Source: Squalus acanthias
Lineage: Eukaryota
Reading direction: 5' to 3'
Length of the DNA: 64,000 nt
NCBI GenBank assembly: GCA_030390025.1
Contig: CM059432.1
Coordinates: 14,696,001 to 14,760,000, forward strand
The notes under the pieces were generated by a model that worked only from the letters and a program-made list of their open reading frames with translations, ran no database searches and was not told where the DNA came from. A program made the translations under genes and the position numbers. Positions 11,857 through 59,784 of the stretch are shown piece after piece; position 1 is the stretch's first letter, and each line of letters begins with the position of its first letter.

Positions 11857-13420
11857 GGCCCGTATTTTCCGATCGGAGGCTTCCTGTGTGCGGAGGCCTC
11901 CGATCTGGAAAAAATCTGCGCCCTTACCAGAGGGCTCCGGAGGTCCGGACACTTCCACTCCTGGGCCTCTGCTCTACGAAATGCGCAGGGTCCAGGTATC
12001 CCAGAGGCGCATGCGGTTCGCAAGCGTCCCTGGGATCACGTGGGCCACGGGGAACCAATGGGAGAAGGGAATCCCCCTTCATACTTTTGACAGGTTAGAT
12101 CACTGAATGGGGATCACTGAAAAAACACATCAAAACATTAAATAAATTTTTTAAAAATCACATTTTTAAAATTAGTTAAAATGACATTAAATTAAATATT
12201 TTAAACAAAAATTTAATTTTTAAAAAAAAAATTAAAGATTTTTACAGGCTAAAAATTAACTTACCTTTTTTAAAAGTATTTTTAAATTATAAATGAAAAT
12301 TTTTTTATTTTTTACTTTTTTAAACTCTTAGGGGGAAAAATTCAGTTGGTTGCGCCTCCCGTTAGCGCCTTAAGAGGGCGCTAATGGGGTGCAAAGCAAC
12401 TAGTGCCCAGGCGTGGCGATGTTTGTGCTGCTCGCGAAATTAACTAGACATTTTGCGGCGGCGCTAAACAGTACCGCCACGATCTCATGCGCCGGCAGAT
12501 CGTGACGTCAGTCGAGTGCGCAACGCCCCGGTAGCGCCCCGGAGCGGATATTGAGTGGCGCCCCCTGCCTTATCGCCTGCCGCTAGCAATGACAGGTTGA
12601 GGGGAGCGTTTTGCAGTCAGGAAGGGACTGGGGGAGTGCTATTTAAAGGTGACATTTTTGAACCACGCATTCTGAGAGAGAGAGACTTCTGGAGAGATTC
12701 AACGCTGTGTGAAGGAGTTTTGGGTACTGAGCAGCACTTTGCAGGTTCATTTTGATTTGCCCTTCCTTGTATCGATTTAGAAGAGACTGTGGGGGCTGCA
12801 CTCTGAGCTCTTTCCCTGGTTCTCCCCATTGTTCTTTCCAGCAGATTTGATGTGCAGGTCTCTCCAGGCCGAGATTCAAGGCTGCAATGAGCAGGATGTG
12901 GCTGGAGAGCAAGATCAACCCTCCCCTTTAAGAACTGGCTGGGGCCATTGTGTCTGTGTTCCATTGCTGACTGACATCACATGAGCTTCGCCAGCGCTCT
13001 GAGTTAGCGCCTCGCTCCTCGGCCTTTACGCCTTAAGACAGGTGTGAAGCGCCTGATTTAGCGCTCCAATCACCTCCAGGGGCGATAAAAGTCAAATTTG
13101 CAGTCGGAGGCGATAATTAGTGCCAGGCGCTAATCTTTGCGCCCGGCCGATAATTGCGCCCCAAACGGGGCAATACTGAATTTTTCCCCCTTATGCTGGT
13201 AAAAGCAGGCCTTATGCCTGCTTTTACCAGGCATAAGATTTTTAAGGGATTTCAGCGGGCGGAGGTTCTCAGAACACTCCACCCGCAGAGGCCCTTCCCC
13301 AGGGCAGGCGTGCGATCGGAAATGCCGGTTTACAGCGCATGCCTAAAACCGGCACTTGCGAGGTCCCTACGGGTGTGTACACAGCTCGTACACACGCATA
13401 GGGATTGGAAAATACGGGCC
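11857..13420. mobile_element. Harbinger-type MITE (outer element)
   Basis: Perfect 14-bp TIR GGCCCGTATTTTCC / GGAAAATACGGGCC with 3-bp TSD AAT. A second, truncated copy starts at 45328. Confidence 0.9.
12331..13190. mobile_element. Harbinger-type MITE nested in the outer MITE
   Basis: Perfect 16-bp TIR GGGGGAAAAATTCAGT / ACTGAATTTTTCCCCC with TSD TTA on both sides. The interior is GC-rich and related to 37018-37696. Confidence 0.92.
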
Positions 13421-13926: not shown

Positions 13927-14467
13927 ACAATAAAAACAGAAAATGCTGGAAATACTCAGCAGGTCAGGAAGCACCTGTGGAGAGAGGGAAACAGAGTTAA
14001 CGTTTCAGGTCGATGACCCTTCGTCAGAACTGGAAAAAGTTGGAGATGGAACAGGTTTTTAAGCAAGTGTAGGGGCAGGGAGAGGGGGGAGGGGAGGAAA
14101 GAACAAAAGGGAAGGTCTGTGATAGGCTGGAAGGCAGGAGAGTTTGAAAGACAAAAGGGATGATGGTGCAGGGCAAAAGGAGATGGTAATGGGACAAGTT
14201 AAGAAACAAAAGATGACTCTAGATGAAGTGCAAATGGCAATGGCAGAATGATCGACAGCTGCCATGTGAGAGAGAGAAAAGAAAAATTGAAAAACATTTT
14301 TTTTGTTGGTAAACCTTGGTTCCCCATTGCCTCAAATGTAATATTCTGATACCTGAAACGTTAACTCGTGTTTCTCTCTCTCTGCAGATGCTGCCTGACC
14401 TGCTGAGTATTTCCAGCATTTTCTGTTTTTATTTCAGATTTCCAGCATCCGCAATATTTTGCTTTTG
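13927..14467. mobile_element. Penelope-like element fragment with inverted pseudo-LTR ends
   Basis: 13927-14010 is an inverted copy of about 14350-14432. A 14-bp flanking duplication TCCTGTGACCATTA lies at 13913-13926 and 14468-14481. It carries a hammerhead motif. Confidence 0.8.
13995..14031 (-). ncRNA. Minimal type I hammerhead ribozyme (Penelope type)
   Basis: Minus strand AGUU-CUGACGA-A-GGGUC auc GACCU-GAAAC-GUU^AACU. It has stem I AGUU/AACU, the conserved core, stem II and a palindromic AACGUU stem III. Confidence 0.8.
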
Positions 14468-15288
14468 TCCTGTGACCATTACATCAACTTAGATCTTAAC
14501 CCACGGGTTACCACCTCCATTAAAATTGTGGACAAAGAAATTGCAATTGAGCAAATATTCACGCAGCGTACTTTCAAGATCCGTGTATTTTAAAATATTT
14601 GTGCAATTCTGATAGATTTGATGCAAGAAACGACACCATAAAGTACGCAACTCATGTTTGAGCCTTCAGCACCGAGCTTATCACACAACTCAGATAATTC
14701 CTCATTTGGATTTTTCCCTGTCTGTAATCACTCTATTGAAAGAAAAAATACTAATGGCGTCCCTGCAGCTTTAAATCTGTTGGGCTGCATGGAATTTTAT
14801 TCTGCCATGCAAGATTCATCTATATTGACTGATGAGCTTTGATCAAAAAATGAAAATTCACGTTTCAAATATTTTCAATGTCACTGCCACATCAGGGAGT
14901 TGTCAGACAGGCTCAGTTGGGGGACCAGCCAGGATCTCACTGCATTGCCGCTGCACTGAAATTAAAGCCTCGATTTTGATCGGACCTGCAGCAGTGCGGC
15001 ATCTCACAGGTAACAGACGTGGGCTGGCAAAATTGGTGCACTCGATTTGTGGGGTGCTCGAATTTCTGATTGGCAATTCAGTGCAAAAAGTGAGGCTTTG
15101 CTACCTGCTTGCAAGACCTCATTTTGACACACAAATTCCAGGGCGACTGAAGTAATCCGAGGAATGGAGTTCGGAGGAGGCTTGTAGGACTTCAGGGGGT
15201 TACAGAGATAAGGAAAAGCAAGGCGCTAGAGGGATTTAAATACAGGTATTAGAATATTAAATTTGACGCACTGGGGAACCAAGAGCCA

Positions 15289-43395: not shown

Positions 43396-45327
43396 GATAT
43401 CCTTACAGTTTTCCATCTGCTTGCTGAGCACAACAAAAGTGGCACACAATATAGTGCCGGTTGTGTCACCATGGTGCCATTATTTTCTCTCCTTTTTCCC
43501 GCCCTCCATGAGTTTGGTGGCTATTACTAGATTACAGTTCTGTATCGATCATTGTCTCCCTCATATGTCACTCCCCATCTCCGTTCCCTTATGTCAGAGG
43601 GGCGTACATTTGAGTATACCTCGCACTCAACTCAGTCATCAATTGCCAGAGCTGCCTTGAACACGTCAAGCATTAATGTGCCTTACTCTCCTCAGCCCAA
43701 AACCACTATTACTCCATGATCATCCTGGAGGGTAGGGAACCACCTTATGCTCCTTTTTACCAATTAGCTCCCGACGTCACTCTCCTCCATCCCATCATCC
43801 TCACTTCAAACACCAAATGTGAGGAGCTCCCATTTTTGGCCCTAAGATTGAGACCATTCATGTAGTTGTCTCTACCACTTCCTCCCCCTCCGTTAGCTCC
43901 CAGTATCCAACAACCTTCTGTCTCCCAGCCTCTCTTGCCCTGAACCCTTGTCTTTCTGCATCTCTCCCCTTGCCCATCTTCTGCTCTCTCAATCACCTCC
44001 CCACACACTTCCTGGCACCCACAATGATTATCAATTTTCCGTCCCCGTACCTTTCCCTTTCAAAACCGTCACTACTCAATCTTCAACAAAAACACCTGTG
44101 ACCAATCTGTTCGCTCCACTAATGTCCAACCTCCTTTCCTCTCTAAGGTTCTCAAAGATCTCATAGGCTCCCGCGTCCACTTCTCCTGCAACTTCTTGTT
44201 CGATTCCGTCCAGTCCAGCAGTGACTTCATCCCCCTCCCTGACCACTGTCAGGGTGAAGCAAGAGGACCCAGCACATCTTACTGCTTAATGCTGCATTTG
44301 TCTTACACCCCTGTCAAAAGGGTTAGCCCGGAGTTCAGTGGCAATGCTCCAAAACAAATGTGAGAGCATCAACTTTAAAAAACAAAACTTGCATTTATAT
44401 AGCACCTTTCACGACCACCGGACATCTCAAAGCGCTTTACAGCCAATGAAGTACTTTTGAAGTGCAGTCACTGTTGTAATGTGGGAAATGCGGCAGGCAA
44501 TTTGCGCACAGCAAGCTCCCACATACAGCAATATGATAATGACCAGATAATCTGTTTTTGTTAAGTTGATTGAGGGATAAATATTGGCCTGGACACCGGG
44601 GCTAACTCCCCTGCTCTTCTTTGAAAGAGTGCCGTGGGATCTTTTACGTCCACCTGAGAGAACAGACGGGGCCTCGGTTTAACGTCTCATCCAAAAAAAC
44701 GGCACCTCCGACAGTGCAGCACTCCCTCAGCCTAGATTTATGTGCTCAAGCCCCTGGAGTGAGGCTTGAACCCATAACTTTCTGACTCAGAGGCAAGGGT
44801 GCTACCCACTTTTTTAAAAAATATATTATTTATTGAACATTAAAAACATTTACAACATCGTGATCATTCCATTGTATCATACAAATCCATTCCGCCGCTC
44901 TGCACAGCCATTCCTCCACCACATATTAAACATCAAAACCTGAAGTTTATTTTGTCTCCCATAACACATACTAATCTATTGTACTTTAAAAATTGACCAG
45001 TAATCATGGCTCCGAAAAAGGGAAGTGGGCCTGATAATCCCATCATTTAATCTCCAGCCCTTCCCTCCTCTCATGCTCCTTCCCAACTTTTCGGGCAGCT
45101 GTTGCTTTCTCCTGCAGCTCGCTCTTTTTCACCTCCTGTTTGAACCTTTCCTGCAGTTTCAGCCTCTTCTTTACATTAGGTTTGGGCCGAGGAGCTGCCC
45201 CTTACTATCCTTTCCCTTTCCACACGATGTCACCCCATCCCCCACTTCCATGTCGCTGTCCCCCTCTGACTCCTCACACTCGAGCTCTTCTGTAACCTCC
45301 CGTCCCTGCTCCCCATCAGATACACTG

Positions 45328-45805
45328 GGCCCGTATTTTCCGATCGGAGGCTTCCTGCGTGCGGAGGCCTCCGATCTGGAAAAAATCTACGGACTTACCC
45401 GAGGGCTCCCGAGGTGCGTGTACTTCCGCTCCTCGGCCTCTCCAACTCGAAATGTGCAGGGCCCACGTATCCCAGAGGCGCAGGCGGTTCGCAAATATCC
45501 CTGGGATCACGTGGGCCATGGGAAGCCAATAGGAATAGGAGAAGGGAATCTCCCTTCATACACTTGACAGATAGACCTGTCAAATATATGAATGGAGATC
45601 ACCCCAAAAACACAGTAAAACATTAAATACATTTTTTTTTTAAATCACATTTTTAAAATGAGTTCAAATTACAATAAATTAAATATTTTAAACAAAAACT
45701 GAATTTTTTTGAAAAGAATACTTAAAGTTTTTTTACAGGGCTAAAAATAAATTTACCGTTTTTAAAGTGTTTTTAAATGATAAATGAGTGAATTTTTAAA
45801 AAAAA
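45328..45805. mobile_element. Truncated copy of the 11857-13420 MITE family
   Basis: Starts GGCCCGTATTTTCCGATCGGAGGC and aligns with 11857-12310. The right TIR is missing. Confidence 0.88.
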
Positions 45806-46160
45806 ACTCGAGAGTCCAGACTAGAGTCGTCGTTGTCTTGTTCACAGATGTGATTTCCAGTTTTAAAAAAAAGTAAAAAGCTTAACTGCAGACTGCAGCA
45901 TTTGACACGTTGGACCCCCTGTGACCCCACCTCATTGTCTTAGCTGTACTCTGCTGTGTCTTTGATGTAATGCCTCCCTGACGGATTGTATCTCTGCAGA
46001 CACATTGTTCTCTGTCTATATATGCTTTGTAACTGATTTGTATTCCCTCACTTTACCTGACGAAGGAGCAGCGCTCCGAAAGCTCGTAATTTCAAATAAA
46101 ACTGTTGGACTATAACCTGGTGTTGTGCGACTTCTCATTTTTGTCCACCCCAGTCCAACA
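45806..46160 (+). mobile_element. Penelope-like terminal fragment (second family)
   Basis: A hammerhead motif is followed by AAATAAAACTGTTGGACTATAACCTGGTGTTG...CCAGTCCAACACCGGC. The left boundary is approximate. Confidence 0.7.
46053..46089 (+). ncRNA. Minimal type I hammerhead ribozyme (Penelope type)
   Basis: UUAC-CUGACGA-A-GGAGC agc GCUCC-GAAAGCUC^GUAA. Stem I is UUAC/GUAA, stem II is a perfect 5 bp, and stem III is the palindrome AGCU. Confidence 0.8.
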
Positions 46161-46704
46161 CCGGCATCTCTGCATCATCTTCAGAATATAGCAGAGATAC
46201 CTCCAAGAACTTATCTCCAACCTTCAAACTCAGTAAAAGTCTTTCCACCTCCTCTCGGCCACTGACCGTTACCTCGAACCCAACATTCGGCTTTGGTCGA
46301 CAAGCAAAGCAGCTTCACTCACCGCAGTCCTCATGTACTGTCTCGATAATATCCCAAGCTCGTATATCCTTATCCTCGCACTGTTTTATTTTCCAAACCT
46401 CCTGGGGTCTCGGCCCAAATCTTTTGGGCCTTTTTTTCTCCCTTCCTCCAACATTTTCTCCCCTGATTAAATTCATCCTGGGAACATTGTCCTCTGAGGG
46501 GCCCGGCACTCCGGGCCCCTCAGCAGCCATCTGACTGCTGTTTAAGGACCAAAAAGGCCCTAATACCTGAAAAAAAAACCTACCACTAACTTTTTACAAA
46601 CTCACTCCAACTCCCTGCAGTAATCAAGCACCCAGCAGCACCTGCTCACTCCTGGCCCCTTCCACCTGGAGAGTGCTACCCACTGAGCCACAGCTGACAC
46701 TAAG

Positions 46705-48714: not shown

Positions 48715-49143
48715 TTGAACTGTTACATCTCTAACTTTTTCCAGTTCTGACGGAAGGTCATCGACCCGAAACGGGTGTGATTTTAACCCTACTCGCTCAG
48801 CAGAAACCTGGCGGGTGGGCAGTTAAAATCGCCCTGGCTCTCACCTGTCCGAGAGCCGCCATGATTGCAACATCTGCAATTTTTAACCCGTTCCCCTGAG
48901 CAGGCAGCAGGACACGTGCCCACAGCCAACAGGGCCCTTCTTTACATATGCATGTTGTGGCCCAATGACATTATTGAGACCCCACTGTAATTTTAACTCA
49001 GGCCTGAGCGGGGAATCCAGCTGGCGTTAAAATCGGGGCCAACTTTGTTTCTCTCTCCACAGATGCTGCCTGACCTGTTGAGTATTTCCAGCATTTTCTG
49101 TTTTTATTTCAGATTTCCAGCATCCGCAGTATTTTGCTTTTGT
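48715..49143 (+). mobile_element. Penelope-like fragment (same family as 13927) with its hammerhead broken by a MITE at 48773-49040
   Basis: Reads AGTTCTGACGGAAGGTCATCGACCCGAAAC|insert|AACTTTGTTTCTCTCTCCACAGATGCTGCCTGACC. The insert ends are GGGTGTGATTTTAAC and GTTAAAATCGGGGCC. Confidence 0.8.
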
Positions 49144-57185: not shown

Positions 57186-59424
57186 TTTGGGAATTGCTGA
57201 TTCCTGGCATTTTCATGCAGAACTATTAGGGACGCGGCAATATCATGAGTGTCTGCTATAAGCAGGGGACGTTATTGTTCCTGCACAAACTAGAATGCCA
57301 CTGAACGCTGCTGCAAAACTCTGAATTCCATTTGCATATAGACAACATTGCTAATAGGAAAATAAGCAATTTAAATTTGGGATTTCTGTCTGCATCTGAA
57401 ACAGAGAAGTGGAGTGAGGCTTCACTAACTAATTCACATGACAAATGCAGAAAGCACAAAGGGCGCTATCTTGCAATGACATGCGCCAACCTATATTATC
57501 ACAGCGATAGCCTTCAAAATTCTAAAAGCTCTTTATATCAGATGAAATAATGGTTATGCAATTGCATCAGTTGTCCTACCTTAGTCTCAGATTTAAACAA
57601 ATGTGCTTGATACCCTTGATACAAGGTATTGTATTGTTAGCTATTAAGTATGGAAGTGGAATGAACAATTGTAGGTGAAATTTAATCTGGAAAAGTGTAA
57701 AATATTGCACGTAGAAAGGGGAAATGGTCTGCACAAATACTCTGCAAATAGTGCTGTAATAATTAAACGTGTAGTTGAAAGTGATCTGGGGATCTTGGTT
57801 GCCACGATACTCATTGTGGAACTCATATTGGTCCTCATTGTGCCCAATTTCTGGGCGGAAAATGGGGTAAAAATGACCACTGTGGAGACAGGGCTACAAC
57901 ACTGAATTTTCCCAATTACATCATATGGCTTGAGAATGAATTCCGTTGCACACCTTCTCAATTTCAGTGATATTATTCACTCTCTTAAGCAGTCTGAGCA
58001 TCTTACTTTATGTGAGTTGACTCACACTGCCAACAATCTACTTGTATGATAGCATAACCCAGGGCTGTAACAATAGCATGCCTTTGTGAACTGGACGGGA
58101 TATTTGTGACTTTAGCACATGTATTTCTTCAATCTCTCTCTGTAGGATGATTGAGTTATCAGTAGGTGAGAATGAGTCATTAAGCTGCTTTATTACACAG
58201 TAAGATGAATGTGCAAAGTAACAGTTGTGATCATATTCAATTGATTAAATCATTAAAACGTATCTGCACATAATGATACAAAAGAAAGAACATGTCACAT
58301 TTCCCCACATCAGTGGGTTGTCTTACTAACAGATTTAGAATACCTCCTCTGCATTTTGTCCTGCAGTCTAGGGGAGAACTTCCTCTTCCTGCAGACTCTA
58401 AGCTTGCCTATTGCAGCCTGACTGCCTGTGTAGCATCCTGTTACTCACAATGCCTCTCTCTTCCTCCCTCCGTTTTTTACCTCTCTCTTCACAGACAGAG
58501 ATCAAAGGGTTTTCAACACAATAGCTTGTAAATGAATCCCAATGAATCGATCTCATCAGGATCAGCTCTGTTGAGTCCCCTCTCTTCATTACCGGCCCTG
58601 TAGAGTACCAGTCTTGTCAAGCTCTCTCTCGTCAGTACCAGTCCTCTATGGTATATACATGAGATAAATACATAATTTTCATTTGCATGGCATGTGTAGG
58701 TAACAAAAGCATTGATAAGAGTGTCACTGGTGGTGGGAGTGAGATAAGGGCGGAATTAGGCAAAAATAAACACTCAAAACCTTGTCACGGAGTTAGCTGG
58801 ATTGGGAACTGAAGCGATAAGTGTGCATTTCGTTCAGTGCCGTCAGCGTGATAAACCAATTATTCAAGGTCCAGAATCCACACCAGTTCCTTGCAGGTGG
58901 GTCATTCTCTGGAATTCGACAAGATGCTGCACGATGGGTGATGGCCGTGGATGGACGGTGGTTAGTTGTCACTGGTCCACAGGAAGACGGGGGTGGGGCG
59001 GAAATAATTATAGAACCAATAATTGTTCTCTTTTAATAGGACCCTTCCACTTGCTGTATTGAAGCTAGGACAACTCTGCTTCGGAATAACATCACCACCC
59101 ACCCCCCACCCCCGCTTTCTTTTTCTGTAAAGAAGAAGAAGCTGCTCTGGGTCCCAGCTCAGTTGGCATCTCACAGCTGGGTGGCAATGAATGTAGGGCC
59201 AGAGGCAAATGCAGCAATAACAGATACTGAGCTGTAAATACCCCCCAGACATCTATAGAAAGTACCAATGCAACGGACAAGAGAAGAATTATTAAAAAAG
59301 CTTACAAAAGCAGTAAGTGAGGAGCAACTCAAACTAAGATCAGTCAGCAATGCCACAGCCACGTATAAAATAATGCAGCCTTTAATTAGAGTTGGGATCA
59401 CCTTCCAAGAGGAGCAGTACTCAC

Positions 59425-59512
59425 AAGCAATGATATTCCCATATCTATTCTTCATTCTGTTTTCATCTTTCTTGGCAGAATCCCATGGAGCAGACTGTCC
59501 TTCATAAAAACT
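59425..59512 (-). CDS. PTPRM: PTPRM-like coding exon (88 nt), start of D1 phosphatase domain: [29 protein letters not shown]
   Basis: Minus strand reads ttccag|AGT TTT TAT GAA ... ATT GCT T|gtgagt. It contains the KNRY motif. The peptide matches recalled vertebrate PTPRM ([29 protein letters not shown]) better than PTPRK or PTPRT. Confidence 0.95.
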
Positions 59513-59784
59513 CTGGAACAGACAAATGAACTGAATGTTATAATTAGTGACAGTATTCACAAAGGACGTGTGATTATAAGAGGCACTGGGGAGAGAAGTA
59601 AATAGATAGGCAACAATAATAGTACCGTGCTCCAATAGTGCATGGACAGCATTGTGCATACAAAGGAATTACAAAAACAAAGTCAACTTCTTGTCAAGCA
59701 AGAGCGAATCTGTTAACTCCCTCCTCTCTGCTGGAATCACCCTCCTTAGTGACTTTCGTTTTCATTATGATGGCAATTTAACTT

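Follow-up and report, generated by a model that had tools for sequence, protein, structure and literature searches.

Non-autonomous LINEs that carry an ORF1 are known from several lineages, and HAL1 (half-L1), HeT-A and Ag-Sponge are named as such in excerpts of PMC5786205 and PMC5753468. The element described here is built as these are, with a 5' UTR, an ORF1 and a 3' tail but no ORF2, and would likewise belong to a family amplified in trans. Their origins differ, as HAL1 derives from L1, HeT-A from Jockey and Ag-Sponge from CR1, and the excerpts list none derived from Tx1. For HAL1 they describe no fixed target inside another repeat, in contrast to the present element, which is not HAL1 proper, as the ORF1 of HAL1 is of the L1 type. 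A second related group consists of Tx1-clade elements in other repeats. Excerpts of PMC4494074 describe Tx1L in Tx1D of Xenopus, Tx1-Mar and SINEU-3 in Mariner-N4_AMi, and Tx1-9_AMi in Harbinger elements; SINEU-3 shares the Tx1-Mar target in 313 of 347 copies. As appears to be the case here, Tx1L, Tx1-Mar and Tx1-9_AMi represent Tx1-clade machinery acting at a fixed position of another abundant repeat. Their targets, as described there, are DNA transposons or LTR elements, whereas the target here is a SINE promoter, and the SINEU passengers are non-coding, snRNA-headed SINEs, whereas the element bears an ORF1. In target use it resembles SINEU-3 or Tx1L, and in build HAL1.

Site-specific non-LTR elements also occupy multicopy small-RNA loci, a likeness to the present case, and excerpts of PMC3706591 and PMC4494074 place Keno in U2, Mutsu in 5S and Dewa in the spacer of tRNA-Leu arrays. 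The reported position of Dewa is the array spacer and not tRNA sequence, whereas the element lies in an A box. Keno, Mutsu and Dewa are known as autonomous elements. Several Dada families insert in the A box of tRNA genes, with a TSD at nucleotides 8–13 (excerpts of PMC8869645 and PMC3706591). As described there, Dada are DNA transposons with short TSDs in true tRNA genes, whereas the element is a polyadenylated retroposon with a TSD of 12–16 bp that starts one base further on than that of Dada. Measured against these excerpts, what appears new is the combination; the ingredients are known separately, from HAL1, from Tx1 elements inside other transposons and from Dada at the A boxes of tRNA genes. 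A search of titles and abstracts returned no ORF1-only Tx1 family and no Tx1 element in a shark SINE; Repbase and Dfam lay outside this search and may hold an existing entry.

The locus was analysed within a window of 64,000 nucleotides, the whole stretch of DNA studied, to which all positions refer. Public contigs and reads were aligned to the window at 82% likeness in four of the 21 listed runs: X3 and X15 from organism A, X8 from organism D and X21 from organism H. From X21 no more than 28 reads aligned, of which two fell in the 5' UTR and may derive from a single fragment; this run was left out. X15, which may be RNA, was used for structure alone. We worked from the best 24 of 106,077 pieces, the best 24 of 2,355 loose-end rows and the best 15 of 367 joint rows. 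Pieces were ranked longest first, which favours those that run into the SINE, and the meaning of the from_end column was inferred from X15 records 3 and 6.

On the minus strand, a tRNA-type SINE starts at 46700, is interrupted after its A box and resumes at 44810, after an insert of 1,862 bp that splits the SINE head between the A and B boxes and lies in the same orientation. The insert is flanked by the TSD AGTGGGTAGCAC (minus strand; 5' copy at 46684–46673, 3' copy at 44810–44799), which is exact at 12 of 12 positions and matches at 14 of 15, with one mismatch, when extended. For an exact 12-mer to arise by chance no further than 30 nt to either side of the opposite junction, the probability is approximately 4e-6. 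The A box (TGGCTCAGTGG) occupies 46690–46680 on the minus strand, and the TSD begins at its base 7. The 5' end of the SINE head, including the first six A-box bases, is thereby the minus-strand stretch 46685–46700, behind which contigs exit into diverse flanks at 46701 (191 in X3 and 296 in X8). The whole A box stays in the upstream half of the SINE, while the B box (44772–44763, minus strand) lies in the downstream half, now 1.9 kb away. Among the contigs, empty copies of the SINE have loose ends that begin at 46669, and their match to the upstream junction extends that far, so the true TSD may be 15–16 bp long. The TSD, the AATAAA signal and the short A run are marks of target-primed reverse transcription. 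The original prediction of a 1.86-kb polyadenylated insert with a 12-bp TSD that overlaps the A box, in SINE orientation, was accurate in each of these points.

The remainder of the host SINE (44385–44798, minus strand) comprises the B box, body and tail. Its body, measured over 44385–44810, matches other SINE copies in the window at 83–90%, and the two other window copies that keep the same part of the head are both empty. A 19-bp deletion at 44731 distinguishes the host SINE body from other copies. Rfam gave a weak tRNA match for an intact SINE copy, in the T arm only (E 5.3), and ARAGORN found no tRNA. The SINE may have a Deu domain, as in DeuSINEs. In length and build it fits SacSINE1 as described in an excerpt of PMC5499810, a comparison by description.

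The insert had been read as one element. This held for the 5' UTR, the N-terminal part of ORF1 and the 3' end, but the count included 851 bp of foreign sequence (45328–46178), two unrelated nested repeats that stand in place of the middle of ORF1; the element's own sequence is 1,011 bp. Its own parts all read on the minus strand. The 5' UTR (46531–46672), multi-copy in X3 and X8, carries a T9 run from 46578 and a T5 run from 46555. The N-terminal part of ORF1 (46179–46530) begins with an ATG at 46530 and runs for approximately 116 codons with one in-frame stop, at codon 72. The stretch assigned to the C-terminal part (45043–45327) is acidic and then basic, with a frame change near 45175 and a stop at 45045–45043. 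It is followed by a frame of 37 codons (44933–45046) and a 3' UTR (44811–44932) with AATAAA at 44834–44829 and a decayed A tail. Only A5–6 is left of this tail in the window copy; the tails of other copies read more A at 44816, in 14 contigs of X3 and 61 of X8. The poly(A) tail and a TSD of 12–16 bp, which is of L1/Tx1 size, are in keeping with the Tx1 clade. The window copy has no long frame between the end of ORF1 and the tail, and, as predicted, the insert holds no endonuclease or RT remnant with tool support. No second copy of the element was found within the 64-kb window.

The first nested repeat (45800–46178, plus strand), a candidate Penelope-like terminal repeat, has its own end at 46178, where loose ends run into diverse flanks. 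Its summed depth was 1.5–2.8 million, compared with 0.03–0.17 million in neighbouring sequence, and its last 140 bp exceeded the adjoining part of ORF1 in summed depth by a factor of approximately 9 (X8) to 96 (X3). At 46057–46081 the repeat contains a CTGANGA-stem-GAAA core, its stem 5 bp long, which resembles the minimal hammerheads of Penelope elements described in an excerpt of PMC4209133. Rfam did not recognise this core, and a loose hammerhead pattern matched 7 times against 5.0 expected, which is not above chance; because of these two results the Penelope-like identity is treated as a lead. Residues after codon 116 were considered as ORF1 and rejected, as they lie in the repeat ending at 46178. 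Within this repeat, 45836–46048 is deep in organism A (X3) and approximately a hundredfold shallower in organism D (X8), and may mark a lineage-specific subfamily. The second nested repeat (45328–45797, no strand assigned) is MITE-like and has one end only. It is 82% alike over 471 bp to a repeat at 11857–12304 that is unrelated to the element, and at 45328, before which the contigs leave it, 180 contigs in X3 and 364 in X8 exit into diverse flanks. This AT-rich repeat ends in a short palindromic arm (45336–45383), and both window copies lack the other end, each being cut by a different repeat.

The N-terminus of ORF1 was searched as a read-through with the stop as X. Among 1.84 billion proteins, phmmer returned four matches at E up to 0.001. 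P0005, a mollusc CCHC-type protein, matched at a phmmer E of 2e-4 and in BLASTP at 37% over 62 aa, and hhalign of the N-terminus against P0005 and three relatives gave 96%. P0002–P0004 were rejected as ORF1 homologs, being unrelated repeat proteins. A word-seeded protein search from P0005 found only three further mollusc proteins; three of these four proteins matched zf-CCHC at E up to 1 (best 1.5e-5), and in the Atlas P0005 sits among zf-CCHC clusters with ZCCHC3-like RNA-binding domains. The homology covers the first RNA-binding domain of CCHC-type ORF1 proteins, and the alignment with P0005 stops where the nested block starts. Approximately 140 conserved residues of the homologs, which comprise the second RNA-binding domain and the zinc knuckles, are absent from the window copy. 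Pfam returned nothing for the four window peptides or the read-through N-terminus, and the N-terminus drew no match in either of two word-seeded protein searches. AlphaFold on the four-row homolog alignment reached a pLDDT of 35, and a PDB sequence search gave no match better than E 0.012.

From one of these four weak hits, the window peptide would be an ORF1 of the CCHC/ZCCHC3-like type, and CCHC ORF1s also occur in other LINE groups. An excerpt of PMC5203782 treats RRM/CCHC ORF1s of non-mammalian animals as consistent with the Tx1 clade. The original prediction of a Tx1/L1 ORF1 peptide is partly supported, for this ORF1 type and not for the Transposase_22 type characteristic of HAL1 proper, for which Pfam gave no match in the window peptides or the homologs. 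Of its two ORF1-like parts, the N-terminal one is the homolog of P0005, while 45043–45327, which has no database match, is a putative C-terminal part assigned by position and composition. Because the element has no ORF2, and with it no RT or endonuclease by which membership of a clade could be placed, we infer its Tx1 label from an ORF1 type ascribed to Tx1.

The ORF1 stop at 45045–45043 overlaps the ATG of the 37-codon frame (ATGA). Such an overlap resembles coupled translation of ORF1 and ORF2. The frame is possibly an ORF2 remnant in which the two extremities of a Tx1 ORF2 have been joined near 45000, a reading drawn from the ATGA overlap; the best Atlas score for the frame, 0.80, was at chance level.

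Contigs established that the element is a multi-copy family in two organisms. Its non-nested parts were covered by 12–111 contigs per listed site in X3 and X8, with median summed depths of 19,726 (3' part) and 29,138 (5' part) in X3 and 218,444 and 167,188, respectively, in X8. Summed depth gives no copy number, and these values are read only as many copies without a strong 5' fall-off; listed single records mostly had depths of 13–58 in X3 (one of 152) and 27–39 in X8. Divergence from the window was 5–15% in the 15 pieces listed for the element's own sequence. At 46317, every contig in all three contig runs had a letter other than that of the codon-72 stop, so this stop is private to the window copy and the contigs represent other copies.

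The loss of ORF2 is likewise common to the family, because diverged single contigs bridge the end of ORF1 and the 3' UTR. Record 4 of X15 spans this junction in one piece (44999–45136), and, by the inferred reading of from_end, single contigs cover 44971–45063 in X3 and 44962–45072 in X8. ORF2 is thereby absent from the family, as in HAL1-type elements, and not only from one copy (X3, X8 and X15), and the deletion junction predicted near 45000 is shared by copies in two organisms. The middle of ORF1 is itself unseen, and the family probably keeps it, since no direct joint of 45328 to 46178 was among the best 15 of 367 joint rows and the 41 letters by which X3 record 13 extends beyond 46177 are absent from the window. 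No single piece among the best 24 of 106,077 linked the 5' and 3' parts.

The flanks of other copies had been set beforehand as a test of the prediction, and all five pieces that reach an end of the element, among the best 24 of 106,077, continue into the TSD or the SINE. At the 5' end, records 6 (X15), 16 (X3) and 23 (X8) cross the TSD to 46695–46697, and record 21 (X8) ends within it; at the 3' end, record 3 (X15) extends 31 nt into the SINE body. Record 23 most likely comes from another locus, because 355 further letters do not fit the upstream flank of the window. Contigs with 5' UTR variants reach 46701–46703, the first base of the SINE, in both X3 and X8, and those in which the tail varies extend to 44780 (X3) and 44763 (X8). 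In a listing that favours pieces running into the SINE, several other copies in two organisms therefore occupy the same SINE site. An excerpt of PMC4494074 speaks of target specificity when a single type of sequence accounts for more than 20% of the flanks.

We consider it probable that the insert is a Tx1-type retroposon that is ORF1-only, as HAL1 is, and that a site-specific partner mobilised it in trans. It would have arisen from a Tx1-type LINE as a non-autonomous non-LTR retroposon that kept the 5' UTR, ORF1 and a short polyadenylated 3' end, lost ORF2 and spread to many copies in shark-like genomes. Its Pol II RNA would borrow the ORF2p of an autonomous Tx1-type partner, whose endonuclease would nick the A box on its antisense strand, at the C/A or the A/G step of GGCTCAGTGG. 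From this nick the poly(A) would be reverse transcribed first, and a second cut 12–16 nt downstream would make the TSD. Excerpts of PMC4494074 state that the ORF2 endonuclease sets target choice and that non-autonomous elements adopt the target of their partner, and one of PMC5786205 gives co-assembly of their own ORF1p with partner proteins as the presumed mode of ORF1-only elements. As the two promoter boxes are separated by each insertion, the SINE copy that receives it should fall silent; the window copy would afterwards have been invaded by both nested repeats, and the middle of its ORF1 would have been lost. Of the predicted non-autonomous, ORF1-only family at the tRNA A box of a SINE, multiple copies, a shared loss of ORF2 and several copies at the site were recovered, and an autonomous partner was not found. 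A stronger version is possible but doubtful, in which an old, abundant ORF1-only Tx1-type family of several cartilaginous fishes is a dedicated parasite of the SINE promoter. A partner endonuclease would read the A box and nearly all copies would lie there, each of them disabling one Pol III promoter of the predominant SINE in the genome.

Shared flanks on both sides would be predicted equally if one SINE with its insert had been amplified as a composite, the insert hitchhiking, or if the SINE head were the element's own 5' end, so that few insertion events took place. We regard this as unlikely. Tx1 families with small-RNA heads do exist (excerpt of PMC4494074), and among the pieces listed no single one shows independent TSDs. 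Against it, tails differ among copies (44814–44823). Pol III would also be unable to make the element's RNA from the host promoter, because the B box lies 1.9 kb from the A box and the T9 and T5 runs of the 5' UTR would stop it, and movement of SINE and insert as one unit is therefore less likely. The internal poly(A) signal, moreover, would end any read-through RNA short of the tail that the L2 partner of the SINE requires, as reasoned from an excerpt of PMC5499810.

It is also improbable that the family merely leans to this site, with most copies elsewhere and the SINE struck through its abundance. SINE depth was 16–38 times that of the element, only five pieces were informative and these were picked longest first, and SINEU-1 and -2 offer a precedent for such weak preference, at 23% and 13% (excerpt of PMC4494074). 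However, none of the five listed end-reaching pieces stops at the junction with leftover letters, all of them passing from element to flank at one and the same position, and the best 24 of 2,355 loose-end rows include none located at an end of the element itself. A partner endonuclease that evolved for the A boxes of real tRNA genes, with SINE heads as by-catch now holding most copies, is very unlikely. Such a target would accord with the preference of Tx1-clade elements for multicopy RNA genes and with the use of tRNA A boxes by Dada DNA transposons, as far as the excerpts on these describe it, but every junction seen runs into SINE-specific sequence, up to the SINE's first base; tRNA flanks could not align to the window. 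An ordinary Tx1 copy with a private ORF2 deletion and a chance landing in the A box is scarcely credible, for although the window copy is clearly damaged, with an in-frame stop, a changed frame, a missing middle of ORF1 and a pair of nested repeats, the diverged contigs of X3, X8 and X15 that bridge the ORF1-to-3' UTR junction, with 33 contigs in X3 and 42 in X8 at 45017, contradict it unless all are duplications of the window locus.

If the reading of a HAL1-like element moved in trans holds, the few known non-autonomous LINEs with ORF1 only would gain a Tx1-type member, and the known Tx1 targets a SINE Pol III promoter, and a non-LTR element would have converged on the tRNA A-box region used by Dada DNA transposons. 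With many dated copies in several species, it could be tested whether an ORF1-only passenger acquires target specificity in trans and whether insertions lower SINE activity. No general principle is changed, as site-specific Tx1 elements nested in other repeats are established. If the more doubtful reading of a dedicated promoter parasite were true, one transposon family would cull the source genes of another, perhaps one SINE copy in 15–40 by a crude depth ratio, and the case would indicate a natural site-specific integrase for which hundreds of thousands of harmless landing sites exist.

The window as a whole is rich in CR1- and L2-type LINE fragments, and its repeats resemble those of a shark. 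To the right of the SINE lies a CR1 fragment, for which a continuation on the left side lacked significance, as 176 and 78 of 200 shuffles scored as well. A short repeat occurs in inverted pairs at 13929–14010, 14351–14468 and 48990–49143, with a hammerhead-like core at 14003–14027, and is perhaps a second Penelope-like family. A minus-strand frame at 59171–59668 contains an exon at approximately 59.4 kb that reads like the start of the catalytic domain of a receptor-type tyrosine phosphatase, and we assume the gene to be a receptor tyrosine phosphatase. In the 5' UTR of the element, a T9-CAG stretch (46567–46578, minus strand) resembles a splice acceptor and precedes the ATG of ORF1 by 37 nt. 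The element and the phosphatase-like exon share their orientation, and host read-through transcripts could be spliced into the element.
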